A stretch of 64,000 bases of DNA from an uncultured Solirubrobacteraceae bacterium (GTDB taxonomy: Bacteria; Actinomycetota; Thermoleophilia; Solirubrobacterales; Solirubrobacteraceae): NCBI GenBank assembly GCA_963746795.1, contig CAVVCR010000002.1:45712-109711 (forward strand), written 5' to 3'. A program made the translations under genes and the position numbers. Within the stretch, counting starts at the first letter, position 1. The number at the start of each line of letters is the position of its first letter. Below, piece after piece: positions 19,502-35,893 of the stretch. The notes under the pieces are model-generated. The model was given only the letters and a program-made list of their open reading frames with translations. It did not search any database and was not told the origin of the DNA.

Positions 19502-20382
19502 CTACTTGCGGCAGGCGGAGTACGAGCGCGACGCCTTGTACGTCTTGCGGTCGGACGCCTTCACGACGACCGAGATCGTGGTCCGGCGCGTGCTGAGCTT
19601 GCGCAGGGTGATCCGCTTCAGCGCCTTGCGGCCCTTGACCTTCGTCTTGCGGTTCACGGCAACCTTCGCGGACTGCAGCCGGCCGCCGTACGGAGCGCGC
19701 AGCCGGAAGCGCATCTGGCGCGCGCGCACACACGAGCCCGCACGCGGGAGCCCGAGCCGGTCGGCGAGCGACACGGTCGGCCCGGGGCGGGCGGGAGCAC
19801 GACGGGCGGCCCCGGGGGCGCTGGCGTCGGCGTCGGCGTGGCCGGCACGGCTATCGCGGTGGCGCCCCACAGGAGCCCGAGGGTCATCGCAGAGCCCTGG
19901 AAGCGGTTGGGGTCGCCGGTCGGGAGCGCGAGCGTGGCCGCGAACTCGTATTCGCGGGCGCCGCCGCCCGCCACGGTGCCGGCGGCGAGCTCGGTGAAGC
20001 CGGCGAGCGGGCCGTCATACAGGGTCGCGGGCGCGGCCGGGGCCGTGATGTCGACCACGCGCAACAGCAGCGAGTCGGAGAGCTTGCCCCCGCCCGCCCC
20101 CGGCACGTCGACGACCGCGCCTCGGCCGAGCACGAGCCGCCCGCCCAGCACGCCCGGGTTGGCGATCCGCACCGTGCCGCTGAGCTGGTCGCCCGGCCGC
20201 ATGCCGGCCGCCCCGAGAACCGCCAGGCCCTCGCGGGAGTTGACGATCGCGATGTCGCCGGTTCCGGACATGAGGCGCATGCCCTCGGCCTCCCGGCGGT
20301 CCTGCGGGGGAGCCGCGAACGCGAGCCCGAGCGCGGACAGGGCCATGCCGAGTGCGGCGACGAGGGGGAGCAGGCCACGCAT
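19502..20382 (-). pseudogene. TasA/camelysin-like secreted protein with a Pro/Thr linker and a K/R-rich C-terminal beta-domain; interrupted by a -1 frameshift as sequenced
   Basis: It has a signal peptide (MRGLLPLVAALGMALSALGLAFA) and a TasA-like core (MRPGDQLSGTVRIANPG, FQGSAMTLGLLW). After PATPTPTPAPPGPPVVLPPAPG the open frame becomes shadow-like. The coding-looking continuation (PTVSLADRLGLPRAGSCVRARQMRFRLRAPYGG...KASRSYSACRK) lies in another frame and ends at 19502. The span of 881 nt is not a multiple of 3. Confidence 0.55.
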
Positions 20383-22451
20383 CAGAAGTCCGAGTCCGCG
20401 GTGCCGCTCTCGGTGACCGTCGTGGTCGAGCTCGCCTTGCCGCTCACGTCGAGCGCCGAGGCGGAGGGGCGCCACGAGATCGCGCCCGTCGCCGTCGAGG
20501 TTGCCAGGGAGCCGCCACCCGAGACGACGCTTCCGAGCGTGACGGTGATCGTGTTGCCGTTGCGCACCATCGTCCCGTTGAGGACCACCGCCCCGCTGAC
20601 GTAGTTGCGGGCCAGCTGGAGGTCGGTCGCCGTGCGCACGAGGTTCAGCCGTGTCGTGTTGGCGGCGTTGTAGAAGTCCATCCGGTCGTTGTTCGCACTG
20701 TTCGTGAGGCGGACCGTGATCGCCGTCGCGCTGCCGTCCCAGCCGGTGAGCACGGAGGCGGGCGCGATCGGCTCGCTCCACGTCAGCGAGATCGTGTCGC
20801 CCGCGTCAGGCCGGCCGGCGATGGCGCCGCCCGACGTCGTCTGGACGCCCACGCCGAACGGCGCGACGTTCTCGACGAACCGCGACGTCACGACAGAAGA
20901 CGCGGTCCGCGGGAAGTTGTCGGTGGCCACCGCGCGGATGTCGTAGAAGGCGTCGGCGACCGCCGTCGTGTTGAACGAGCACGTATAGGGCGCGGCGGTG
21001 TCGGCGGCGCAGATGTTCGTCCACGTCCCTGCGCCCGCCGGCGAGCGCTGGAAGGTCACGTTGGCGATGCCGCCGCCGTCGGACGCGGTGGCGTTGAGCG
21101 TCACGGTCCCGGTCAGCGGAGTGCCCGGGTCGGTGAGTGAGACCGTAGGCGCCACGTTGTCGACGCGCCGGTTCGTGATGGTGGTCGACCCGAACTGGTT
21201 GCCCGCCGCGTCGGTGGCGAGCGCGCGCAGCTCGTACATGCCGTCGGCGACGGCCGCGGTCGCCCACGCGCAGGAGTAGTTGGACGGCGCGGTCACCGTC
21301 GTGTCGGTGCACCCGTCGAGCCACGTGGTGTCGCCCACCAGGCGGTACTGCGGCTTCCACGAGGCGATGCCCGAGCCGGTGTCGGTCGCCGTGCCGCTGA
21401 GCGTGACCGAGCCCGAGAGCGGCGAGCCCGGGTTGGTGAGCGTCGAGGTGGCGGGCACCGCGTTGTCGATCCGGAACGTCGTCACGGCGCTGGTCGTGAT
21501 GAAGCCCGCGTTGTCCTCCACGATCGCCTGCAGGTCGTACACGCCGTCGGTGCGGGTCAGGGTGTCGAAGCTCGAGCACTCCCACGGCGCCGCCGTGTCG
21601 ACGGCGCACAGGTTCGCCCACGCGCCGACGCCCTGCCGGATCTGGATCGTGACCTGCTTGACGCCGGAGCCGGCGCCGTCGCCGGTCGTGACCGGGACCG
21701 CGATGGTGCCCTTCACCGGCCCGAGGGCTGGGATCGAAGCGGTCGGAGCGTTGTTGTCGACGGTCCGCGTGGAGACGGAGTCGTGCTCGTTCCCAGCCGC
21801 GTCGGTGGCGCGGGCGCGCAGCTCGTGGGCGCCGTCGGCGAGCGTCGTGCTGTCGAGCGCGCACACCTGCGGCGACGTCAGACCCGAGCACAGCGTGGTC
21901 CACGACCCGCCGGCCGGGCGATGGGCGATGCTGAGCGAGGCCAGGCCGCTGAGGACGTCGCTGCCGGTCGCGGTCAAGATCTCGGTGCCCCTGACGACGC
22001 CGGGGTCGCTCAGGCTCGCCACCGGCAGCGCGTTGTCGAACAGCCGCGCGAGCACGGTCGACGAGCGCTGGTAGCCGGCCTGGTCGACGGCCGTCGCGCG
22101 CACGTCGCGCAAGCCGCCGGCCACGCCGGCCGAGTCCCAGTCGCAGGCATAGGGTGCCGAGGTGTCCTCGCAGGCGTCGGTCCACGTCCCGGCGCCGGCC
22201 GGAGAGGTCTGGAAGCGCACGCGGTCGATGCCGCGCTCGGAGCTCGCGGTGCCGGACAGCGAGACGACCCCGCGGTGCGGGGTCCCCGGGTCGTCCATCG
22301 AGACGGCCACGGTGTTGAAGTCGGCGGCCGCCGCGAAGGCGTTGCCCGGGGAGCTCGACGCGGGCACGAAGTCGGCGCCGGAGGCGGTCATCCCGGTGGC
22401 CGCGGCGACGACGGCCGCGATCGCGAGCCAGGTGGAGACGAGGCGCTTCAC
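20382..22451 (-). CDS. secreted Ig-like-domain repeat protein with a SipW-type signal peptide
   Basis: 689 aa with a GTG start that overlaps the sipW stop (GTGA). The N-terminus is KRLVSTWLAIAAVVAAATGMTASGADFVPASSSPGNAF. Five repeats of about 95 aa each carry a Cys pair and the motif ...ADG.Y.LRA.ATDAAGN...VDN.AP. A distinct C-terminal region of about 170 aa follows. Confidence 0.8.
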   Translation of the reverse strand: MKRLVSTWLAIAAVVAAATGMTASGADFVPASSSPGNAFAAAADFNTVAVSMDDPGTPHRGVVSLSGTASSERGIDRVRFQTSPAGAGTWTDACEDTSAPYACDWDSAGVAGGLRDVRATAVDQAGYQRSSTVLARLFDNALPVASLSDPGVVRGTEILTATGSDVLSGLASLSIAHRPAGGSWTTLCSGLTSPQVCALDSTTLADGAHELRARATDAAGNEHDSVSTRTVDNNAPTASIPALGPVKGTIAVPVTTGDGAGSGVKQVTIQIRQGVGAWANLCAVDTAAPWECSSFDTLTRTDGVYDLQAIVEDNAGFITTSAVTTFRIDNAVPATSTLTNPGSPLSGSVTLSGTATDTGSGIASWKPQYRLVGDTTWLDGCTDTTVTAPSNYSCAWATAAVADGMYELRALATDAAGNQFGSTTITNRRVDNVAPTVSLTDPGTPLTGTVTLNATASDGGGIANVTFQRSPAGAGTWTNICAADTAAPYTCSFNTTAVADAFYDIRAVATDNFPRTASSVVTSRFVENVAPFGVGVQTTSGGAIAGRPDAGDTISLTWSEPIAPASVLTGWDGSATAITVRLTNSANNDRMDFYNAANTTRLNLVRTATDLQLARNYVSGAVVLNGTMVRNGNTITVTLGSVVSGGGSLATSTATGAISWRPSASALDVSGKASSTTTVTESGTADSDF

Positions 22452-23002
22452 GCCGGGGCCTCCGCGCTGCGGCGAGCGGCCTCGGCGCCGAGGCGGCGCC
22501 ACAGGCCGGCGAGGCTGAGGGCGGCGAGCAGGAGCGCGGGGAGCGTGACGACCGCGGTCCGCACGTCGCGCCGCCCGAGGGCGGCGAGCGCATGGCCGGC
22601 GTAGGGGATGCCGTAGCGGACGCGGGCCTGGGTCGGCTGGCTGAGCCGGAACGTCCACGGGTCGGCGACCGGGTTCGCGTCGCCCCGCGTCCGGAACACC
22701 CGCTGGCCGGCGTCGTCGCGGCCCATCCAGGCGATGCGGTGGGTGATCAGGTGATCGGGACCCGCTCCGGCGGGAGGCTCGTAGGTGATGACGTCGCCGA
22801 CGCGCAGCTCGGCGACGGGGACGACCTCGGCGAGCACGAGCGAGCCCTGGTCGTACGTGCCGGTCATGGAGCCGGAGACGATCGCGTAGCGCTGCCAGCC
22901 CCAGAGGGCCGGAGCCAGCGTCGCCAGCGCGGCGAGCACCGCAACGGCGAGCGCCGCGCCGAACGCAAGGCGCCCGGCGCGGCGGATCATCCCGTTCCCC
23001 AT
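22448..23002 (-). CDS. sipW: signal peptidase I, SipW/archaeal-ER type (S26B)
   Basis: 184 aa with an N-terminal TM, the SGSM nucleophile motif, ITHRI (His), RGDAN and a C-terminal TM. It is embedded between TasA-like genes. Confidence 0.85.
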   Translation of the reverse strand: MGNGMIRRAGRLAFGAALAVAVLAALATLAPALWGWQRYAIVSGSMTGTYDQGSLVLAEVVPVAELRVGDVITYEPPAGAGPDHLITHRIAWMGRDDAGQRVFRTRGDANPVADPWTFRLSQPTQARVRYGIPYAGHALAALGRRDVRTAVVTLPALLLAALSLAGLWRRLGAEAARRSAEAPA

Positions 23003-23020
23003 GAAGCTGCCTGCTGCGGT

Positions 23021-23615
23021 CTAGGAGACCGCGTTGAAGTCGAACTCGACGCTCGACGTGTCGCCCTGGTAGTTGTCGTTCGCGCTGCCGTCGAGCTGGA
23101 CCGTGAACTCGTAACGGTGCTTCTCGTTCGCGTCGTAGGTGCCAAGGGCGTCGATCTCGTGGCCGGCGGTGCCCATCTGCGCGATGGTGCCGCCGGTGAA
23201 CTTGACGACGTCGTCGCCGCCGGCGCCACAGACCGGCGGGGTGCCGCCCACGAACTCGCCGCAGTCGGTGACCGTGATGTTGAGCTTGCCCGAGAGCGGG
23301 TTGGCGCCGTCGTTGTCGACAGGCGCGGTGCGCGAAAGGGTGAACGCGCCGCTGAGGCTGCCGGTGTTCTCGATGTCGACGGTGCCGGTGGCCGACGGGA
23401 CCGCCGGGGCGCAGGTCGCTGGCCGTCAGCACCGCGACGCCGTCCTTGGAGTTGTCGATGCTCAGGGTGCCCGCGGCGAACGTGTTCGCCGGGTTGGCCG
23501 AGGCAGCCGAGAAGTTGGCGCCCGAGCCGACGACGGCGCCGGCGGCGAGCAGCAGGGTGAGAAGCGCGCCCAGAGCGAGCTTCGGCTGGCCCACGAGGAC
23601 CTGGAGACGGGACAT
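23021..23615 (-). pseudogene. TasA/camelysin-like protein with a SipW-cognate signal peptide; interrupted by a +1 frameshift as sequenced
   Basis: The frame from ATG 23615 reads MSRLQVLVGQPKLALGALLTLLLAAGAVVGSGANFSAASANPANTFAAGTLSIDNSKDGVAVLTASDLRPGG and then turns shadow-like. The continuation (PSATGTVDIENTGSLSGAFTLSR...YQGDTSSVEFDFNAVS) lies in the frame of the 76-aa track ORF. The span of 595 nt equals 3n+1. Confidence 0.6.
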
Positions 23616-23667
23616 GTCGGGATGGCTCCTTGGGGGAGGATGGTGTGCCTATTCGGGCGTCGGATCT

Positions 23668-23765
23668 CGCCCTTGCCGGCAACCGAGCCATCTCGCGTGT
23701 GGACGAGACCTCTGGCTTTGCGTCCCCGCCTCACGACGGGTTTGCCTTGGTCAGCACCCTCGGTA
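23668..23765 (-). promoter_or_regulatory. c-di-GMP-I (GEMM-I) riboswitch aptamer in the leader of the tasA-like/sipW operon
   Basis: The minus-strand RNA reads AAGGCAAACCCGUCGUGAGGCGGGGACGCAAAGCCAGAGGUCUCGUCCACACGCGAGAUGGCUCGGUUGCC. The GGCAAACC, GNRA-capped hairpin, GGGACGCAAAGCC and GGUUGCC blocks match the Vc2 aptamer as I recall it. An AAGGAG RBS and ATG 23615 follow about 50 nt downstream. The boundaries are approximate. Confidence 0.8.
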
Positions 23766-23834: not shown

Positions 23835-24302
23835 ATGTCAGACGGCGTCGTCATGACCGAAGCGGACCGCCGGTCCCTCGAGGCCGAGTTGCACGAGCTC
23901 GAAACCGAAGGTCGCGCGGAGATCGCCGACCGGATCCGGACGGCGCGCGAGTGGGGCGACCTCAAGGAGAACGCCGAGTATCACGACGCGAAGAACTCGC
24001 AGGCGATCCTCGAGACGAAGATCCTGCGCCTGCGCGACCGGCTGCTGCGCGCCGAGGTTGTGGAGGCGCAGCCGGGCTCGGCCGTCGCGCGCTTCGGGAG
24101 CCGCGTGCGGCTCGTCGACCGGGGATCGGGACGCGAGCTCGCCTACACGCTCGTGTCGGCGGTCGACGCCGATGCCGCACAGGGCCGGCTGTCGGTCGAG
24201 TCCCCGGTCGGCCAGGCGCTGCTCGGTACCGCCGCGGGCCAGACCGTCCAGATCGCGACCCCTCGGGGAACGCGCGACCTCGAGGTCGTCGCCGTCGACT
24301 AG
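23835..24302 (+). CDS. greA: transcription elongation factor GreA
   Basis: 155 aa. The sequence MSDGVVMTEADRRSLEAELHELE...REWGDLKENAEYHDAK shows a Gre N-terminal coiled coil and a C-terminal FKBP-like domain. Confidence 0.9.
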   Translation: MSDGVVMTEADRRSLEAELHELETEGRAEIADRIRTAREWGDLKENAEYHDAKNSQAILETKILRLRDRLLRAEVVEAQPGSAVARFGSRVRLVDRGSGRELAYTLVSAVDADAAQGRLSVESPVGQALLGTAAGQTVQIATPRGTRDLEVVAVD

Positions 24303-24559
24303 CGACGGCGGCGCCGGAAGAGCTCCGTCCGCATCCGCTCCAGCGCCCTCCGGGCGAGCGCGGCGCTGTCGGGCGGCGCGCTGAAGGTGACCTCGTCCGC
24401 GCCCGTGGTTCCGCCTGGGCCGGTCTCGAGGAACGCCAGCTGCCCCAGCAGCCGCTCGCAGGCCTCGCGCTCGTCGGGATGCGTGCACTCGATCACCGCG
24501 GCGCGGTAGCGGTGAAGCTCGCTCGCACGCACGGTGAGTGGTCCGGCCCCTGCCGCCAT
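24299..24559 (-). CDS. hypothetical protein (86 aa)
   Basis: The ORF has coding-like composition. It converges on greA with a 4-nt overlap. No family was recognised. Confidence 0.35.
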   Translation of the reverse strand: MAAGAGPLTVRASELHRYRAAVIECTHPDEREACERLLGQLAFLETGPGGTTGADEVTFSAPPDSAALARRALERMRTELFRRRRR

Positions 24560-24718
24560 GGGGATGGTTGGTTACCGGCGGACCGGCGAACCAAACCATC
24601 CCCATGGAGTCATGGCGGGGGCATCAGCCCTCGAGGCCGGCCTCGTAGCCGTGCCAGTACGCCTGCTGGACCTCGGGGCCGGTGGTCCGGAAGTCCTCGG
24701 GCGCTCGCCATCGTCCCG

Positions 24719-25537
24719 TTAGAGGTTGACCCCGTACGCCTCGGTGAACGCCTCCTTGGCGTAGGCGTCGGACGCGTAGGCGAAGCCCTTGTCTCCCCAG
24801 CCGGTGCCCCAGCTGTTGCGCACGATGAACACGCCGGCGCGGTAGCCGACGATCGCCACGGCGTGCCCGCCGTCCGCGCTCTCCTCGTCGTAGACGTCGA
24901 GCTTGCCCACGGTCTTCTTCGCGTTCATCCAGTTGTCGTCGACGTTCAGTCGCGTGAGGATCGGGCCCACTTCGGCGATCCAGCGCCGCCAGGTCTTGAC
25001 GTTGTTGCCGGAGAAGCCGAGGGTCAGGTTGAAGTAGTTGCGAATCCGCAGCTCGGACGCGAGCGTGTAGAAGGCTCCGACGTCACCCGGGAACAGGCCG
25101 CCGCCCGAGAACTTGAGCACGTTCTCATGGACGGCTCCGTACTTGCGCGCGACGTCGAGCGCCGACTTGATGCTCGTCCCGGCCAGCTCCACGAACGTCG
25201 TCGGTCGCTCGATGTACGAGTCGATCTCCTTCGACGCCATCCAGGCGAAGCGGACGGACAGGCGGTCGGCCTGCTTGACGCGCCCGGCCTTCACGAAGTG
25301 CCAACGCAGCACCGAGTCGGCCGAGGCCCAGCCGACGCAGGACCCCGTCGCCCTCTGGTCCCCCACCTCCCACCACGTCTCGCGCAGGTCCTTCGCGTTC
25401 GGCACGGTCGCCGCGGCATCCAGCGTCCCCGCCTCGACGGCCGTGTCGGCCGCCCAGTCGCGCTCCCGGTTCGGCGACGGGATGACGTTCAGCACCCGCC
25501 GCCCACGCACCGTCGTCTTGAAGGGTTTTTCGCTCAC
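24719..25537 (-). CDS. C1 family (papain-like) cysteine peptidase, no signal peptide
   Basis: 272 aa. It has QRATGSCVGWA (catalytic Cys), GGHAVAIVGY (His) and RNSWGTGWGDKGF (Asn/Trp). The gene looks less GC-rich than its neighbours by eye; this was not quantified. Confidence 0.8.
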   Translation of the reverse strand: MSEKPFKTTVRGRRVLNVIPSPNRERDWAADTAVEAGTLDAAATVPNAKDLRETWWEVGDQRATGSCVGWASADSVLRWHFVKAGRVKQADRLSVRFAWMASKEIDSYIERPTTFVELAGTSIKSALDVARKYGAVHENVLKFSGGGLFPGDVGAFYTLASELRIRNYFNLTLGFSGNNVKTWRRWIAEVGPILTRLNVDDNWMNAKKTVGKLDVYDEESADGGHAVAIVGYRAGVFIVRNSWGTGWGDKGFAYASDAYAKEAFTEAYGVNL

Positions 25538-26965: not shown

Positions 26966-28738
26966 CTAGACGTCCATGACGCCGTCGACGGTGAGGACGA
27001 CTCCGCACGCGACGAGCGCGGCCGCAAGCAGGCGGCCCGTCCACCGGAGGACCCGGCCGCCGGGACCCTCGATAGGTGACCCGGCCGTCAGCCCGATCAA
27101 CAGGGCGATGCCGATCGCCATCGCGCCGACGCTCTCGAGCACACCTCGGTCGGCGCCCGCCGCCAGCGCCAGCACGAGCAGGGCGGGGCGGGCGACGATG
27201 GGGATCGCGACCGGGATGAGCGCCGCGCGCCGGCCGGCGAGCGCGGGCTCGGGCGAAGGTGGTCGGCGGAAGAGGTCGCCGATGCCGGCGACCACGGCCA
27301 CGACCCCGGCCGCGGTGCGGAACGAAGGCTCGCTGACATCGAGGGCGTCGAGCAACGGGTCTCCTGCAGTGGCGGCGATGCACACGACGAGCCCGCCGAT
27401 CAGCCCGCCGACGGCGGCCATGCCGACGACGCTTCCCCGCGACCTCGCATCGCGAGGGAGCCCGAACGCCGCCCGGGCGGGGTTGAGCGCCAGCACCAGC
27501 GCGGCGACCCACAGCCAGCCCGACGGCGCGTCGTCGCCGGGGCCGCTCGGCGGGTCGCCCGCCTGAGCGATCGGGATCGTCCGCAACAGGGCGGCCAGCG
27601 CGTGTTGCTGGTCATCCATACGCGTCTCGCCATCGAGGAACCAGGCGCCCTCCACCCGTTGCGGGCGGGCGGCGCTCGCGGCATCCTCTCCGTCCGATTG
27701 CGCGCGCACGGCGAGTGCGGCGATGCAGGTCGCACGTTCGGCGAGCGGCCCACGGAGGTCGGCCAGCCGGGGCTCTTCCTGGGCGGTCAGCCACCACCCG
27801 GTGAGGGCCTCGCCGATCACGCCATACCCGCCTCCCCGGGGCACGTAGCTCCCCCGCACCAACTCGCCCCACGGCCCGAAACGCTGGCTGACCCACCGGG
27901 CCTGGATACCGAAGAGCTCGGCTTGCCGGCGCGCGTAGCCCACCTCGTCCTCGGTGAGCGGCGGCCGGGCGCGCTCCGGGAATTCCACGGTCTCGGCCAC
28001 GCCGTAGGCGGCCCAGTGATCGGGGATCGGGGGCCAGTGATCCTCGACCTCGTCGCGCGACGTCGCGAGGTAGGCGCCGATGCGGTCCGCGGCCTTGCCC
28101 CAGCCGTCGCCCGGGAAGGTTTGGTGGAGTCGCGCCAGAGCCCAGTAGGCCTCGCCGGTGAAGTACTTGGAGTACTCGCCGGGGACCGGTGCCCCGCGCG
28201 TCGCGGCGTACGCCGCCAGCACCGCGCCCGACGGCTCGGTCTGAGCGAGTAAGAAGCGCCCGAGCCGGCCCATGACCTCGTCGTAGCGCCGGTCACCGGT
28301 GGCCTCCCGGCGAATGTCGAGGCCCGCGACCAGGAGCGCGCTTGCGCCCGTCGCGATCCGCCCCTGTGAAGCGAGCGCGGCCCAGCCGTCGCGTTCGAGG
28401 AGTCTGTCGAGCGCCCACTCGGTGCCCCGGTCGGCCGAGCGCAGCGCCCCCGGCAATCCGGCCGCGGCGGCCTGGTAGAGACCCATCGTCACCCCGGCGT
28501 GGCGAACCGGGTTGTACTCGACCGGAGTCGAGTCGTCGTCGGCGTTGTAGAGGTACAGCCAGGTGCCCTCCGCCCGCTGGTTGCGGACGAACCAGCCGAC
28601 GGTGGACTCCGCCGAGCGCCGGAGCTCTCCGGCGCTGACCGTCGGGCAGCGCTCCGGCGGCGCCGCGACCGCGAACGCGACAACAAGGAGCAGCGCGAGC
28701 GTCAGGCCGGCCCGCAACGCGCGGCGGGTTGCGCTCAT
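26966..28738 (-). CDS. fusion protein: signal peptide, alpha/alpha-toroid-like (terpenoid cyclase/prenyltransferase-repeat-like) domain, and MarC-like 6-TM domain
   Basis: 590 aa starting at MSATRRALRAGLTLALLLVVAFAVAA (ATGA overlap with the HTTM stop). The middle has NQRAEGTW, NPVRHAGVTMGLY, GASALLVAGL and YSKYFTGEAYWALARL. The C-terminal region (LALNPARAAF ... SFRTAAGVV ... ALIPVAIPIVARPALL ... RLLAAALVACGVVLTVDGV) matches the MarC/UPF0056 pattern. The toroid family assignment is tentative. Confidence 0.6.
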   Translation of the reverse strand: MSATRRALRAGLTLALLLVVAFAVAAPPERCPTVSAGELRRSAESTVGWFVRNQRAEGTWLYLYNADDDSTPVEYNPVRHAGVTMGLYQAAAAGLPGALRSADRGTEWALDRLLERDGWAALASQGRIATGASALLVAGLDIRREATGDRRYDEVMGRLGRFLLAQTEPSGAVLAAYAATRGAPVPGEYSKYFTGEAYWALARLHQTFPGDGWGKAADRIGAYLATSRDEVEDHWPPIPDHWAAYGVAETVEFPERARPPLTEDEVGYARRQAELFGIQARWVSQRFGPWGELVRGSYVPRGGGYGVIGEALTGWWLTAQEEPRLADLRGPLAERATCIAALAVRAQSDGEDAASAARPQRVEGAWFLDGETRMDDQQHALAALLRTIPIAQAGDPPSGPGDDAPSGWLWVAALVLALNPARAAFGLPRDARSRGSVVGMAAVGGLIGGLVVCIAATAGDPLLDALDVSEPSFRTAAGVVAVVAGIGDLFRRPPSPEPALAGRRAALIPVAIPIVARPALLVLALAAGADRGVLESVGAMAIGIALLIGLTAGSPIEGPGGRVLRWTGRLLAAALVACGVVLTVDGVMDV

Positions 28739-29847
28739 CGTCTCGTCATGCGGCGGGAGAGCAGCGTCACCGGGAGCGCGAACCATGCCGTCAACGGAAG
28801 GCGGCTGAGCGCCAACGCGAGAGCCGGAGTCCCTCGGACGGTCGCGCCATCCCGGTCCACGACCTCCAGCCGGGAACCTGGCCGAGCCGGCTGGATGTGA
28901 AAGCGGGCCAGCCAGTCGAACGCGCGCGCCACCGACGCCCATCGCCCGTCGATGCGGAGCACCCGGTCCCGGGTGGACGGCACGGCCCAGATCACCAACA
29001 CGGCGATGCCGAGATACGAGAAGACCTGCACCGGCGCCGACACTTGGATCGCGACGTGAAAGGCGACGGCAACCCACACGGCGGCGTAGCGAGTGCCACG
29101 CCACCACAGGCCGAGCGCGATGAACAGCTCGGTGAGCACGACGATCTTGGCCGCTCCGGTGTGAACGGTCCGGTCGGTCAGGACCGACACCGCCCAGTCC
29201 GGCAGCGGCCACGCGTCCAGCTGGTCTCGTGCCCGCACGACGCGCTGCCAGGTGACGGTGCCGCCAAACCAGTCGGGATCGACGAGCTTGCTCACGCCGG
29301 ACGCCCCGTAGACCGCGGCGCACTCGAACCGGAGCAGCCACAGCGGCCAGGCCGGCGCCGTCGGGGCGAGTGCCGGTAGCCCCCGACGACGGCGGAGCCA
29401 CGCGTCGACCGACAGCTCACGCCCGCACGGCGCTATCGCCAACAGCCCCAGGACGATGACGAGATAGGCCCGGTTGTTGTGGAAGTGCGTCGTCGAGAGG
29501 AACAGGTTGTAGGCGACGATCACGAACGTCGTCGCCGTCGCCAGCCGGGTCTTCAAGCCGAGCGACATGGCGACGGCAGCCGCTGCGGCGAGCCAGAGCA
29601 GTGCGATGTACAGCGCGTCGGGCACCTCCGGGTACCAGGCGGCGTAGGGCTCATAGAAGGCGTCGCGGTACGTTCGCCCGTCCGAGGCGTCGGAGATGAA
29701 CGGACGCAGGTGCAACAGCACGACGGGGCCGACCAGCACCCGCAGCAACGCGAGCGCCCGCATGCTGATGGGGCGGCCGAGCAGCTCGTCGAAGGCGGCG
29801 ACCACGCCGCGGACGCGGCGCGGCGCGTCAACCGCGGACGCGTTCAC
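28735..29847 (-). CDS. HTTM (vitamin K-dependent gamma-carboxylase-like) membrane domain protein with a Cys-less DCC/DUF393-like C-terminal domain
   Basis: 370 aa with a GTG start that overlaps the upstream stop (GTGA). The sequence SMRALALLRVLVGPVVLLHL...FYEPY..., and the multi-TM layout, are HTTM-like. The tail (VLRIDGRWASVARAFDWLARF...LEVVDRDGATVRGTPALALALSRLP) resembles DCC1-like thiol-disulfide oxidoreductases, but WASV replaces CxxC. Confidence 0.65.
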   Translation of the reverse strand: MNASAVDAPRRVRGVVAAFDELLGRPISMRALALLRVLVGPVVLLHLRPFISDASDGRTYRDAFYEPYAAWYPEVPDALYIALLWLAAAAAVAMSLGLKTRLATATTFVIVAYNLFLSTTHFHNNRAYLVIVLGLLAIAPCGRELSVDAWLRRRRGLPALAPTAPAWPLWLLRFECAAVYGASGVSKLVDPDWFGGTVTWQRVVRARDQLDAWPLPDWAVSVLTDRTVHTGAAKIVVLTELFIALGLWWRGTRYAAVWVAVAFHVAIQVSAPVQVFSYLGIAVLVIWAVPSTRDRVLRIDGRWASVARAFDWLARFHIQPARPGSRLEVVDRDGATVRGTPALALALSRLPLTAWFALPVTLLSRRMTRR

Positions 29848-30290
29848 CCTGCCCCCTCGCGGAGACGGCTCCGGAGGACCTCGACCCGGCGAGGGTCGGC
29901 GTTGTGCCATGACGTCACCGTGGCCTCCAGGTACCGCGTCTCGCCGTCGCGTGGCGTGTTGCTCGCGACCCAGTCGAGCGCCGCCTCGAGAAACGCGAGC
30001 TGGTTGGCAAGCCCAGCGTCCGCGTGGTGGCGGACCGCGGGGTACCTCAGCCCGCGGTTCTGGACCATCTCGTCCCACTGGTAGCCCGACCACGGACGTT
30101 CGATCGGAACGCGTCGACCGTCGGCGGTGACCCGAACGACGTCGGCGCGCCAGGTGCTCGACTCGGGGAACATCTGGAACGCGAACGGCTTGTGGTCGGA
30201 CCAGTAGCCGCGTGCCACGAACCCGAGCTGCGCCGACACGACGGCGATGACAACCATCCGCCGCCCCACGACCCTGGTCCGCGACTTCAC
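29844..30290 (-). CDS. N-terminally anchored hypothetical protein, first gene of the HTTM operon
   Basis: 148 aa. It has one TM (MVVIAVVSAQLGFVA) followed by a soluble domain of about 115 aa. It is translationally coupled to the HTTM gene. Confidence 0.6.
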   Translation of the reverse strand: MKSRTRVVGRRMVVIAVVSAQLGFVARGYWSDHKPFAFQMFPESSTWRADVVRVTADGRRVPIERPWSGYQWDEMVQNRGLRYPAVRHHADAGLANQLAFLEAALDWVASNTPRDGETRYLEATVTSWHNADPRRVEVLRSRLREGAG

Positions 30291-30299
30291 GCGATTACG

Positions 30300-31133
30300 A
30301 TGACACGGCCCGGCGAGCGCCGCTTGTCGACTCCGTGTCCACGCACGGTCTTGTACTTCGAGCCCGACACCTCGCTGCTGGACGCCGCGCAGGCAGCGTG
30401 CGTCGCGCTGCCGGCCGCCGGTGTTCCGGCCGTGCTACTGCGGCTCGGTGGCCGCGGGTGGGCGCTGGTGGCTCCGGTATCGATCCTCGTGAGCGTCGGG
30501 CTCATCGCGCTTTCCGATGCGGGCGCGGACGTGATCACATGGATCGCGCTACTGCTCGTGCCGCTTGGCTGCGCGCTCGCGTTCGGCTGGGCGGCTCACG
30601 GCGCGCGCCCGTGGCTCGCGGTGCTCACCGTGCCGGCTCTGGCGGCGGCGATCGCGGCCCCCGACGATCCGCTCGGCCGCGTCGGACGCCTCGTCCTGAT
30701 CGTCGGCTCCGTCGTCACCGTCGGCCGTCTGCTGGCCGGCGCGGCGCCGCTGACGCTGCTCAAGGTCGGCGTGGTCGCGATGGCGGGCATCGACGCGATC
30801 GCGATCTTCGGCGACCTGTTCGGCGACCAGAACGAGCAGTTCAACGCGGCGGCCCCCGGGGGCCTCCCCCGTCTACAGGTCGCCGACATCGGTGACGTCT
30901 CGACCGACTACGGCGACTTCTTCGTGGCCGGGCTTGTCGGCGGGATCCTGGCCGCCGACCACCGGCACCAGGTCGCGGCTGCGATCGCGACGTTCGCGGT
31001 CGCGCAGGCGTGGAACCAGCTATTCCTCGTCCTCGACTCATTGCCCGGCACGATCCCGCCCGCGCTCGTGATGCTCGCCTTCGAGAGTCCGATCGGCCGG
31101 GGTGGATTCGCACCACCGCGCGACGGATCATGA
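30300..31133 (+). CDS. presenilin/signal-peptide-peptidase-like (A22 family) intramembrane aspartyl protease candidate
   Basis: 277 aa with about 9 hydrophobic helices. MAGIDAIAIFG (YD-like, TM6), DYGDFFVAGL (GxGD-like, TM7) and IPPALVML (PAL, TM9) occur in the canonical order. The start is uncertain; alternative TTG codons lie at 30324 and 30351. The last 13 codons and the stop come from a tRNA-Met fragment. Confidence 0.5.
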   Translation: MTRPGERRLSTPCPRTVLYFEPDTSLLDAAQAACVALPAAGVPAVLLRLGGRGWALVAPVSILVSVGLIALSDAGADVITWIALLLVPLGCALAFGWAAHGARPWLAVLTVPALAAAIAAPDDPLGRVGRLVLIVGSVVTVGRLLAGAAPLTLLKVGVVAMAGIDAIAIFGDLFGDQNEQFNAAAPGGLPRLQVADIGDVSTDYGDFFVAGLVGGILAADHRHQVAAAIATFAVAQAWNQLFLVLDSLPGTIPPALVMLAFESPIGRGGFAPPRDGS

Positions 31134-34124: not shown

Positions 34125-34197
34125 TGGGCCGGGGTGGATTCGAACCACCGCACGACGGATTATGAGTCCGCTGCTCTAACCCCTGAGCTACCGGCCC
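34125..34197 (-). tRNA. tRNA-Met (anticodon CAT; elongator-type, Ile2/lysidine not excluded)
   Basis: The reverse complement is GGGCCGG-TA-GCTC-AGGGGTTA-GAGC-A-GCGGA-CTCATAA-TCCGT-CGTGC-GGTGG-TTCGAAT-CCACC-CCGGCCC-A. This folds by hand as a canonical 73-nt cloverleaf. The G1-C72 pair argues against an initiator. CCA is not encoded. Confidence 0.9.
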
Positions 34198-34294
34198 TGC
34201 GGGCAATCTACGCCGGGCGGGGGCCGTGGGGGTGGTTGACACCCCGTCGGAGCCGTGACTAGGGTCGCGCAGGAAAGGCGACCTCGGAGGCGGC

Positions 34295-35893
34295 ATGGCG
34301 CATCACGGATTCGAGAGCTATTGGGTCGAGGGCGAAGGTGTGCTCTCCGAGTCCGGCGAAGGCCGCCAGGCGCCCGCCGTCGCTGCGAACGTCGACGCTG
34401 CCGTGCCGCCGTTCCGCTTCAGCCGGATGGGGCCGAAGGGGACCGGCAAGCAGCTCGGGGAGCCCAACCACCGCAAGCTCGCGCGGGCGATGACCGCCGG
34501 CCGTGGTGGCTTCGGGAACATCCCGGCGGGCTACACGTACCTCGGCCAGTTCATCGACCACGACCTCACGTTCGACAAGTCGACGGTCGCGCTCGGGGAG
34601 AACATCCCGCTCGCGCAGCTGCTGCAGGCGCGCTCGCCGAGCCTGGACCTCGACTCGCTGTACGGCGCCGGGCCGGGCGACCCCGAGTCGGCCAAGTTCT
34701 ACAGCGACGGCGTGCGGCTGAAGATGGGCAAGACGGACGCGGTCGGCCCGCCGCCGTTCCAGGCCCGCGACGGGTTCGACCTGCCGCGGGTGGGCGGCAG
34801 CGGCTCGAAGGCGAAGAAGCGCAAAGCCAACATCCCCGACCCCCGCAACGACGAGAACCTGGCCGTCGCCCAGACGCACCTGGCCATGATCCGCTTCCAC
34901 AACCGGGTCGTCGACAGCCTGCCGAACGCGATGCCCGCCACGCAGAAGTTCGCGACGGCGCGCGACATCGTCACCCGGCACTACCAGTGGATGCTGAAGA
35001 CCGACTACCTGCCGCGGATCGCCGCGCCGGGCGTGGTCAGCAACGTCTTCAACAGCGGTCGCAAGGCGTTCGAGGTCGGCGCCGCGGCAACCACGATCCC
35101 GACGATGCCGATCGAGTTCTCGATCGCCGCCTTCCGGCTCGGTCACGCGATGGTCCGCGACGCCTACGACTGGAACGCAGCGTTCCCGAGCGGCGACGGC
35201 ACGCTCGGCTTCCTGTTCGAGTTCTCCGGCCTCAGCGGCACGCTGTTCGGGGGCGTCCGGCTGCCGAGCAACTGGATCGCGGATTGGCGGCGGCTGTACG
35301 ACTTCAAGAAGGAGCAGAACCGCAACGACCTCGCGCCGCCCGGGTCGCTCAACAAGGCGATGCGGATCGACACCACGCTCGCCACGACCCTGCACGCGCT
35401 GCCGACGAACACCACCGGGGACCCCGCGGGCGGCATCCGCGACGACCTCGCGTTCCGCAACCTGCGGCGCGCGCGGATGGTCCGCCTCGCGACGGGCCAG
35501 CAGATGGCGACGTTCCTCAAGGGCAAGGGCGTCACCCTGACCAAGCTCACGAGAGCCCAGCTACGCGACGGCAAGAACGGCGCCAAGCTGGACGGGCTCG
35601 CCCCGGGCCAGCGCGACGGCCTGCTCACCAACACCCCGCTCTGGTTCTACATCCTGCGCGAGGCCGAGCTCAACAACGGCAGGCTCAACGGCGTCGGCGC
35701 GCGGATCGTCGCCGAAACGTTCCACCGCGCGATGGAAGGCAGCACGTCCTCGATCGTCCGCGACCCGACCTGGCGGCCCAACCTGGGGCCGAACGACGCC
35801 ACGTTCCGGATGAGCGACCTGCTGATGTTCGCCTTCGAGGGCAAGAAGAACCTGCTCGCCCCGCTCGGAGACACGACCGGCGGCGACATCTGA
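34295..35893 (+). CDS. animal-type heme peroxidase family protein (peroxidase-cyclooxygenase superfamily)
   Basis: 532 aa. It has the distal-His motif YLGQFIDHDLTFD, then RNDENLAVAQTHLAMIRFHN, and the proximal-His motif EFSIAAFRLGHAMV. No signal peptide. Confidence 0.8.
   Translation: MAHHGFESYWVEGEGVLSESGEGRQAPAVAANVDAAVPPFRFSRMGPKGTGKQLGEPNHRKLARAMTAGRGGFGNIPAGYTYLGQFIDHDLTFDKSTVALGENIPLAQLLQARSPSLDLDSLYGAGPGDPESAKFYSDGVRLKMGKTDAVGPPPFQARDGFDLPRVGGSGSKAKKRKANIPDPRNDENLAVAQTHLAMIRFHNRVVDSLPNAMPATQKFATARDIVTRHYQWMLKTDYLPRIAAPGVVSNVFNSGRKAFEVGAAATTIPTMPIEFSIAAFRLGHAMVRDAYDWNAAFPSGDGTLGFLFEFSGLSGTLFGGVRLPSNWIADWRRLYDFKKEQNRNDLAPPGSLNKAMRIDTTLATTLHALPTNTTGDPAGGIRDDLAFRNLRRARMVRLATGQQMATFLKGKGVTLTKLTRAQLRDGKNGAKLDGLAPGQRDGLLTNTPLWFYILREAELNNGRLNGVGARIVAETFHRAMEGSTSSIVRDPTWRPNLGPNDATFRMSDLLMFAFEGKKNLLAPLGDTTGGDI

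Follow-up and report, generated by a model that had tools for sequence, protein, structure and literature searches.

We identified an operon of three genes, referred to as g1, g2 and g3, in the genome of an uncultured soil bacterium of the Solirubrobacteraceae (GenBank assembly GCA_963746795.1, contig CAVVCR010000002.1, positions 45,712 to 109,711), in which a small anchored protein and an HTTM membrane protein are linked to a protein composed of an alpha/alpha toroid and a MarC-like membrane domain. The whole stretch of 64,000 nucleotides that was analysed is called the window, and its positions are used throughout. The components of the operon belong to known folds and families; the assembled system and the toroid family are undescribed. 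The gene linkage is conserved in related genomes, the toroid and the MarC-like domain occur both fused and as neighboring genes, and the HTTM protein aligns with the vitamin K-dependent carboxylase GGCX at residues that activate quinol in the latter. We tentatively propose that the three products act together at the outer face of the membrane. The operon and the adjacent gene gM consist of the following features:

g1, 29844-30290, minus strand, GTG start: protein of 148 amino acids (aa), anchored by a single N-terminal membrane helix at residues 7-25; its alpha/beta domain, about 115 aa long, is predicted to be on the outer side.
g2, 28735-29847, minus strand, GTG start: HTTM protein of 370 aa.
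g2 HTTM domain, 28984-29775, minus strand: residues 25-288, Pfam PF05090.
g2 C-terminal tail, 28735-28983, minus strand: residues 289-370 and the stop codon, with one more hydrophobic segment.
g3, 26966-28738, minus strand, ATG start: fusion protein of 590 aa.
g3 anchor and toroid, 27554-28738, minus strand: helix at residues 7-25 and an (alpha/alpha)6 toroid at about residues 30-395.
g3 MarC/UPF0056-like domain, 26966-27523, minus strand: residues 406-590 and the stop codon, six helices.
gM, 30300-31133, plus strand: polytopic membrane protein of about 260-277 aa, divergent from g1.

A preliminary description of this DNA had placed the trio on the minus strand with GTGA and ATGA overlaps, and both coordinates and overlaps were exact: the stop codon of g1 overlaps the GTG start of g2 in GTGA, and the stop codon of g2 overlaps the ATG start of g3 in ATGA. 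Gene calls in two related genomes gave the same trio with identical 4-base overlaps. Because 3 bases separate the end of g3 from a convergent M20 peptidase gene and g1 is divergent from gM, the operon is bounded on both sides, and since the flanking genes vary between related genomes it is a self-contained unit. An Rfam scan detected no riboswitch or other Rfam element at the operon, no promoter or terminator consensus of note was found there, and PADLOC gave no match to anti-phage defence systems. As the G+C content of the window is about 73%, naive clustering of stop-to-stop open reading frames (ORFs) and a gene caller based on G+C at third codon positions (GC3) were misled by antisense frames; genes were therefore identified from profile matches and from the gene calls of the sequence collection itself. 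Full-text literature searches returned no paper that links HTTM with MarC or describes the cluster, in agreement with the earlier remark that neither the fusion nor the trio is known as a described system.

The closest relatives of the operon were found in metagenome-assembled genomes labelled Thermoleophilaceae, Solirubrobacterales or, more broadly, Actinomycetota. Among the 80 closest genome loci, 62-63 keep the gene order and orientation of g1, g2 and g3, with g1 adjoining g2 in 62 of the 80; this synteny is far beyond chance. An exhaustive search of cluster representatives with g3 gave 1451 matches at E<=1e-3 and 225 at E<=1e-30. Relatives of g3 were located in at least 480 candidate stretches in species-level genomes of soil and aquatic Actinomycetota and in at least 600 in metagenome contigs. 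Named carriers belong to the Thermoleophilia and the Acidimicrobiia, and the carriers encountered are uncultured. In the Acidimicrobiia the toroid gene is faced by a divergent gene pair encoding a 131-149-aa protein without an assigned family followed by a 288-315-aa membrane protein. The latter shows weak or full HTTM matches and represents a second, remote HTTM subfamily. Linkage to an HTTM gene was counted in all 119 loci with at least 1.5 kb of sequence upstream of the toroid gene: the co-directional g1-g2 type was present in 71 and the divergent HTTM type in 28, giving an HTTM gene beside the toroid gene in 99 of the 119, and 20 loci had neither arrangement. Fifteen fused toroid-MarC genes close to g3 have no HTTM gene or g1 within about 2-6 kb upstream (L005, L008, L012, L028, L033, L036, L047, L048, L050, L052, L056, L066, L070, L076 and L078); they could have arisen as second copies or by relocation. 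In L008 the fused gene has an unrelated soluble ORF of 219 aa upstream of it.

The second gene had been described as encoding an HTTM domain, and this assignment is firm: the Pfam HTTM model (PF05090) matched residues 25-288 of g2 with E=1.7e-24 and 87.3 bits, far above the cut-off of 27.7. The two HTTM subfamilies share only about 21-25% identity; hhalign linked them at 95.6% (E=1.2e-8, 244 columns), and K187, W193, H121, E240 and H264 (g2 numbering) are invariant in both. When a profile of both subfamilies was compared with 177,635 PDB sequences, GGCX was the sole match (E about 3e-5, GGCX residues 56-227). In this alignment G184-x-x-K187-L-x-x-x-x-W193 of g2 corresponds to G215-V-K-K218-L-D-A-D-W223 of GGCX, and H123-N124-N125-R126-A-Y128 to W157-N158-N159-H160-S-Y162. 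According to a cryo-electron microscopy study of 2025 (PMC12647623), vitamin K hydroquinone is deprotonated in GGCX by Lys218, the base, on which Trp223 stacks; the substrate carboxylate is held by Asn159 and His160 and CO2 by Phe299, and the lumenal domain contributes Tyr395 and Met401. Judged by the profile alignment, the quinol-activating Lys/Trp pair of GGCX is kept in g2 and is invariant in both HTTM subfamilies. The substrate site of GGCX appears to be kept in part, with Asn159 matched by N125 and His160 replaced by Arg126. The preliminary description had hinted at a quinone-dependent process on the outer face of the membrane, and the exclusive PDB match to GGCX, with K187, W193 and N125 aligning with Lys218, Trp223 and Asn159, lends some support to that suggestion.

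The C-terminal tail of g2 is absent from the Acidimicrobiia HTTM subfamily. Among eight g2-type tails tried, five gave sub-threshold matches to NfeD (E from 3e-5 to 0.04) and one a DCC1-like match below the cut-off (E=0.026), and the CxxC motif is absent from the g2 tail. Its assignment as a DCC1 domain was dropped in view of the single weak match and the missing CxxC; the tail is possibly a DCC1-like remnant without this motif.

The first gene encodes, as noted before, a 148-aa N-terminally anchored protein. Hydropathy analysis gave a single hydrophobic helix at residues 7-25, preceded by an N-terminus rich in Arg and Lys, and an AlphaFold2 (AF2) model of low confidence (mean predicted local distance difference test, pLDDT, of 66) has a helix at residues 2-26. 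All 2182 homologues of g1 are named 'hypothetical', and a Pfam domain is found in none of them. Being composed of a single-pass anchor and a small, predicted outward domain, and encoded beside the HTTM gene, g1 is proposed to be the partner subunit of the HTTM protein. A likeness of g1 to the lumenal domain of GGCX or to DUF5819 was also considered and is unsupported, the model being poor and giving no Foldseek match. The small protein of the Acidimicrobiia resembles g1 in position, size, single-pass topology and a short '...MF' motif after the helix. It contains two invariant Cys and has no Pfam or NCBIfam match at E<=10, DUF5819 and SdpA included. An iterated hidden Markov model search in which both small proteins were merged was discarded, as it had drifted to 280 ORFs in all 162 loci, and we regard the two as positional equivalents only.

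In g3 a Pro/Gly/Asp-rich linker precedes the MarC-like domain. The match of this domain to the Pfam MarC model (PF01914) is marginal, with 25.0 bits (cut-off 23.9) and E=1.5e-5 over residues 446-587, and four NCBIfam NAAT models gave colinear sub-threshold matches. The C-terminal domains of 27 family members were compared by hhalign with MarC, YchE and YhgN of E. coli K-12 and aligned at 94.2% (E=1.1e-7) over 169 columns, almost the whole length of MarC, in a stretch that covers both the helix-1 motif NP and the helix-4 motif PxxxPxxxxP. The AF2 model of the domain has six helices, at a pLDDT of only 30-50. By these profile matches the domain is a remote member of the MarC family, and the fusion to a MarC/UPF0056-like domain with six membrane helices, which had been proposed earlier, is confirmed. 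In the JGI annotation the 590-aa fusion proteins are labelled 'small neutral amino acid transporter SnatA (MarC family)'. This label fits the last third only and masks the other two thirds, which form a barrel predicted to face outward.

Toroid proteins occur in two architectures, either as fusions of 560-600 aa (down to 33% identity) or as stand-alone proteins of about 385-410 aa, which stop where the linker of the fusion starts. In 72 of the 80 metagenome loci with a stand-alone toroid gene, this gene is followed by a MarC-like ORF in the same orientation, and most of the others are cut by the end of the contig. Five Acidimicrobiia genomes contain toroid genes of 374-405 aa that overlap by 4 bases with genes encoding membrane proteins of 174-191 aa. 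The separate-gene MarC-like proteins scored 22.8 and 15.1 bits against Pfam MarC, which is below threshold. Parts that are fused in one lineage and adjacent in another are classic evidence of parts working together, usually in physical interaction, and the existence of fused and split forms therefore indicates that the toroid and the MarC-like domain work together. The toroid/MarC pair, fused or split, is at least as constant as the HTTM gene, and the term 'HTTM-centred' used in the preliminary description understates its place in the operon.

An AF2 model of the toroid, based on 28 sequences, has a helical repeat over residues of about 30-390 with a pLDDT of 85-95. Foldseek gave 83 matches in the PDB at E<=0.001, the best 50 of which are all alpha/alpha toroids; E-values lay between 2e-6 and 1e-4 and TM-scores, normalised by target, between 0.54 and 0.65. 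At the top are the sulfoquinovose isomerase YihS, cellobiose 2-epimerases, the mycobacterial mannosidase MmpH and GH76 alpha-1,6-mannanases. Lower ranks are taken by the type II cyclase MstE and by 8paj, a small protein resembling squalene-hopene cyclases, which has the highest identity (19%). A single-sequence search with g3 against PDB chains returned nothing; a profile of 49 family members found 8paj (E=5e-4), the repeats of which align with the lone QW-like segment at residues 33-61. No Pfam toroid family, glycosidases and epimerases included, was over threshold in the window protein or in the 49 members, and the matches recorded were to SQHop_cyclase_C in two of the 49 at E=0.012 and to GlcNAc_2-epim in two at E=0.033. 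The domain had previously been described as carrying terpenoid-cyclase/prenyltransferase-like repeats, with two peptides quoted, NQRAEGTW among them, both of which are present in g3. The toroid fold was confirmed, but the earlier reading is too specific, a cyclase or prenyltransferase being one of several options. There is only one QxxxGxW motif (residues 54-60), a QW-like pattern of squalene-hopene cyclases that NQRAEGTW fits. Neither a DxDD acid motif nor prenyltransferase Zn ligands are among the (near-)invariant columns of the 49 sequences, the DDD at residues 67-69 differs among family members, and sugar isomerases and glycosidases match better.

Conservation within the toroid was analyzed in the same 49 sequences, which share 31-71% identity. 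The (near-)invariant residues are E29, C31, W49, G58, Y62, Y75, R79, H80, G131 and G195 in the N-terminal half and D240, W242, R281, E310, C338, Q347, G364 and D375-D376-Q377-Q378-H379 in the C-terminal half; H241 and H379 are invariant, and C31 and C338 form a conserved cysteine pair. Most of these residues are located at the N-terminal ends of six helices, one hairpin apart, which start at about residues 77, 130, 191, 241, 304 and 374, and the polar conserved sites R79/H80, G131, G195/E196, D240/H241/W242, E310 and D375-H379 mark the N-terminal ends of these alternate helices. Six-hairpin enzymes build their active-site funnel at such helix N-termini. Since the conserved residues lie at the funnel end of the six hairpins, the modelled toroid looks like an enzyme or a specific binding site with a polar, active-site-like funnel. 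A sequence comparison of the toroid with E. coli YihS by hhalign was not significant, at a probability of 0.4%.

The trio described as a three-gene unit stands, but the unit often comprises four genes. Of the 57 related loci in which at least 1.1 kb flanks the operon on each side, 33 have a homologue of gM within about 100 bases of it, some upstream and others downstream, and in either orientation; gM was also called as a gene in L167. This adjacency is kept despite the changing position and orientation, which makes a functional link likely, and gM is a candidate for a fourth component of the unit. Invariant in gM are D165, D203, D206, C34, C91 and a PGT.PP motif, and searches of Pfam, NCBIfam, PADLOC and PDB sequences gave no match. 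The segments IDAIAIFGD (IDAVFIFGD in most relatives), DYGDFF and PPAL are reminiscent of the YD, GxGD and PAL motifs. A role for gM as a GxGD protease of the presenilin/signal peptide peptidase type is not claimed, since it has no Pfam, NCBIfam or PDB sequence support.

We infer, tentatively, that g1, g2 and g3 may form one membrane complex in which menaquinol and O2 would drive a modification at the outer face of the membrane. The two gene arrangements and the fused and split forms argue for a physical complex. The non-membrane modules are predicted to face outward from the positive-inside N-termini, the C31/C338 pair and the two Cys of the Acidimicrobiia small protein, and also by analogy with the lumenal active site of GGCX. 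In the proposed mechanism g2 would be a GGCX-type HTTM membrane enzyme with its Lys/Trp pair, and g1 would be its partner, in the role of the DUF5819 proteins or of the fused lumenal part of GGCX and MloH. With menaquinol and O2 as inputs, the two would produce a strong base or oxidant on the outside of the cell, which is free of ATP. The base or oxidant would serve to modify a small molecule or an envelope component held by the toroid, in whose funnel the substrate would be bound or a second catalytic step take place. Movement of the substrate or product across the membrane, or docking of the barrel to the complex, would be the task of the MarC-like module, and in more than half of the related genomes the adjacent gM would belong with the trio. 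To our knowledge, carboxylation is the sole precedent for such chemistry. A more specific version, in which g1 and g2 constitute a split bacterial GGCX-like enzyme, powered by menaquinol and O2, that acts on a non-peptide substrate presented by the toroid and carried by the MarC module, is rather unlikely. If true, it would provide a physiological role for housekeeping bacterial HTTM proteins and for the MarC/UPF0056 family. The cluster joins the role of bacterial HTTM proteins beyond one antibiotic pathway to the function of the widespread MarC/UPF0056 family, along with an unannotated toroid domain, and it offers concrete residues (K187 and W193 of g2, H241 and D375-H379 of the toroid) for asking whether vitamin K-type chemistry is an ATP-free source of energy for bacterial reactions in the envelope or outside the cell.

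Several observations weigh against a quinol-driven complex. About 17% of the toroid loci with enough flanking sequence have no nearby HTTM gene. Neither BLAST nor hmmsearch nor hhalign gave a significant match between g1 and the Acidimicrobiia small protein, the Pfam and NCBIfam models, those of DUF5819 and SdpA included, do not match g1 at E<=1, and Foldseek found no fold match at E<0.5 for the g1 model. In g2, His160 of GGCX is replaced by Arg, the lumenal residues Tyr395 and Met401 have no counterpart in the 370 aa, and an attempt to align the C-terminal half of the HTTM domain with GGCX, so as to cover Asp263 and Phe299, gave no match. The Lys/Trp pair may be conserved in HTTM proteins generally, in which case it would not prove quinol chemistry. 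We know of no settled function for the MarC family. No substrate was identified and no precursor-peptide gene is present. Finally, the best fold matches of the toroid are sugar isomerases and glycosidases, which have no link to quinones.

The latter matches are the basis of the main rival explanation, which we rate as rather improbable and in which the operon remodels an envelope glycan or glycolipid. A wall polysaccharide would then be the substrate of the toroid, either a glycoside hydrolase or a sugar epimerase/isomerase, the MarC-like module would take up or export the freed sugar, and the HTTM protein and g1 would be scaffolds or perform non-GGCX chemistry. Besides YihS, the cellobiose 2-epimerases, MmpH and the GH76 mannanases at the top of the Foldseek results, the conserved Arg, His, Asp, Glu and Trp with which the six alternate helices start favor this explanation, as six-hairpin enzymes usually have their active-site funnel there. 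The invariant H241 and H379 may correspond to the catalytic His pair of AGE/YihS-type enzymes, and PDHW (240-242) and DDQQH (375-379) look, by eye, like the GHW motif and the C-terminal His motif of YihS. The GlcNAc_2-epim matches point in the same direction but are weak and confined to two of the 49 members, the hhalign probability with YihS is 0.4%, and no glycosidase or epimerase Pfam family reaches threshold. Moreover, a glycan-remodelling operon leaves unexplained why an HTTM protein with the GGCX-aligned Lys/Trp pair is linked to the toroid gene in 99 of 119 loci and in two independent arrangements.

A role in isoprenoid or quinone housekeeping is improbable in our estimate. The toroid would in that case be a class II cyclase-like or prenyl-binding domain whose substrate is a polyprenyl lipid or the menaquinone epoxide produced by the HTTM protein, with the MarC-like module handling the lipid head group. 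The best profile match in the PDB, the 365-aa squalene-hopene/curcumene cyclase-like 8paj, found through its QW-like repeats, agrees with this role, as do the presence of 8paj and MstE among the fold matches and the QxxxGxW motif. This motif is single, however, no DxDD is conserved, the DDD at 67-69 varies, and the SQHop_cyclase Pfam match is limited to two of the 49 members; the toroid is predicted to lie in the aqueous exterior with a polar funnel, and sugar-acting toroids score better in the fold search. Equally doubtful is the maturation and export of a peptide or protein, with the toroid/MarC protein serving in recognition, export or immunity. In the sdpABC operon of B. subtilis, the HTTM protein SdpB acts with the small protein SdpA on the toxin SdpC, and the layout of a small partner and an HTTM protein is the same in the window. 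Linaridin gene clusters also include an HTTM protein of unknown role (PMC9927463). Against such a maturation system, no conserved precursor-like small ORF is present in or beside the operon, in which the genes overlap and around which the flanks vary; the SdpB model matched with E=0.13 and the SdpA model gave no match, enzymes for RiPPs, the peptides made by ribosomes and modified after translation, are absent nearby, and, in contrast to the usual bacteriocin locus, the cluster lies on the chromosome and is conserved widely. The remaining probability falls to some reading other than the four named here.

Several further genes were recorded near the divergent HTTM pairs of the Acidimicrobiia and elsewhere in the window. 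The end of the HTTM gene shares 4 bases with a SIR2-family gene in three Acidimicrobiia genomes (L161, 4835-5596; L169, 3900-4649; L170, 3901-4656), and a ThiF-rhodanese gene lies further downstream, in two of them directly after the SIR2 gene. Two other Acidimicrobiia genomes have an AlaDh_PNT gene and an APH/EcKL kinase gene in place of the SIR2 gene. A 201-211-aa gene that follows the MarC-like gene in three Acidimicrobiia loci was considered as a counterpart of gM and rejected, its product being soluble and unrelated. Within the window, a cyclic di-GMP (c-di-GMP) riboswitch of the c-di-GMP-I-GGC type (RF03167) was detected at 23674-23755 on the minus strand with 63.9 bits (gathering score 59), directly upstream of a gene encoding a 1088-aa protein with Big_7 and Big_13 Ig-like domains (20382-23648, minus strand). 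The location of RF03167 upstream of an Ig-like protein suggests that the latter is a c-di-GMP-controlled surface or adhesin protein. The minus-strand stretch 24299-25537 contains the gene of a papain-family C1 peptidase (272 aa) and, after it and in the same orientation, an 86-aa ORF without an assigned family, which could be a cognate inhibitor or partner of the peptidase. At 34259-35893 on the plus strand is a gene for a protein of 544 aa that contains an animal haem peroxidase domain (PF03098, E=1.5e-16), and a tRNA gene (34125-34197, minus strand) lies ahead of it.

Each part of the operon can be compared with a described system. Like MarC/UPF0056 proteins (NAAT, SnatA), the C-terminal domain of g3 has six helices and the NP and PxxxPxxxxP motifs. 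It is very remote from them, with only 7 of the 49 members of the g3 family at E<0.1 against the Pfam model, and within that family it is always fused or translationally coupled to a toroid predicted to face outward, which is not a described MarC architecture. The toroid shares its fold, its size of about 360 aa and the polar conserved residues at one end of the barrel with YihS/AGE, MmpH, GH76 and the 8paj/MstE toroids, and one QW-like motif with the class II cyclases. It differs from the known toroid enzymes in its low identity (10-19%, at a root-mean-square deviation of 6-10 Å), in matching none of their Pfam families, in having no catalytic motif that is demonstrably kept, and in being membrane-anchored at both ends.

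For g1 and g2 the comparison is with other HTTM systems. SdpA/SdpB of B. subtilis likewise consist of a small protein and an HTTM membrane protein encoded side by side, whereas the operon is not accompanied by toxin precursor or immunity genes and its match to the SdpA/SdpB models is limited to the sub-threshold one given above. With GGCX and with MloH, a bacterial vitamin K-dependent carboxylase (PMC12647623) in which both parts are fused (bioRxiv 10.64898/2026.08.19.745780), g2 shares the HTTM membrane domain, the equivalents of Lys218, Trp223 and Asn158/159 and, by prediction, an active side that is non-cytoplasmic. In contrast to these enzymes, g2 lacks the large lumenal domain with Tyr395, Met401 and the propeptide site, has Arg at the position of His160 and has a separate 148-aa protein as its likely partner; the operon is without a Gla-type substrate and without a biosynthetic gene cluster, and the link to a toroid/MarC protein has no counterpart there. 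Single-pass DUF5819 proteins and the adjacent HTTM-DCC proteins are predicted to form a complex that resembles the whole of GGCX (bioRxiv 10.64898/2026.08.19.745780). These DUF5819 and HTTM-DCC1 pairs are not reported with a toroid/MarC gene, and they differ from g1 and g2 in that g1 has no DUF5819 match and the tail of g2 is at best a Cys-less DCC1 remnant. They have in common with the operon a single-pass protein with an outward domain of about 120-160 aa, encoded next to an HTTM gene, and an HTTM protein with an extra C-terminal part, so that by analogy g1 fits the DUF5819-type architecture rather than the DUF5819 family.

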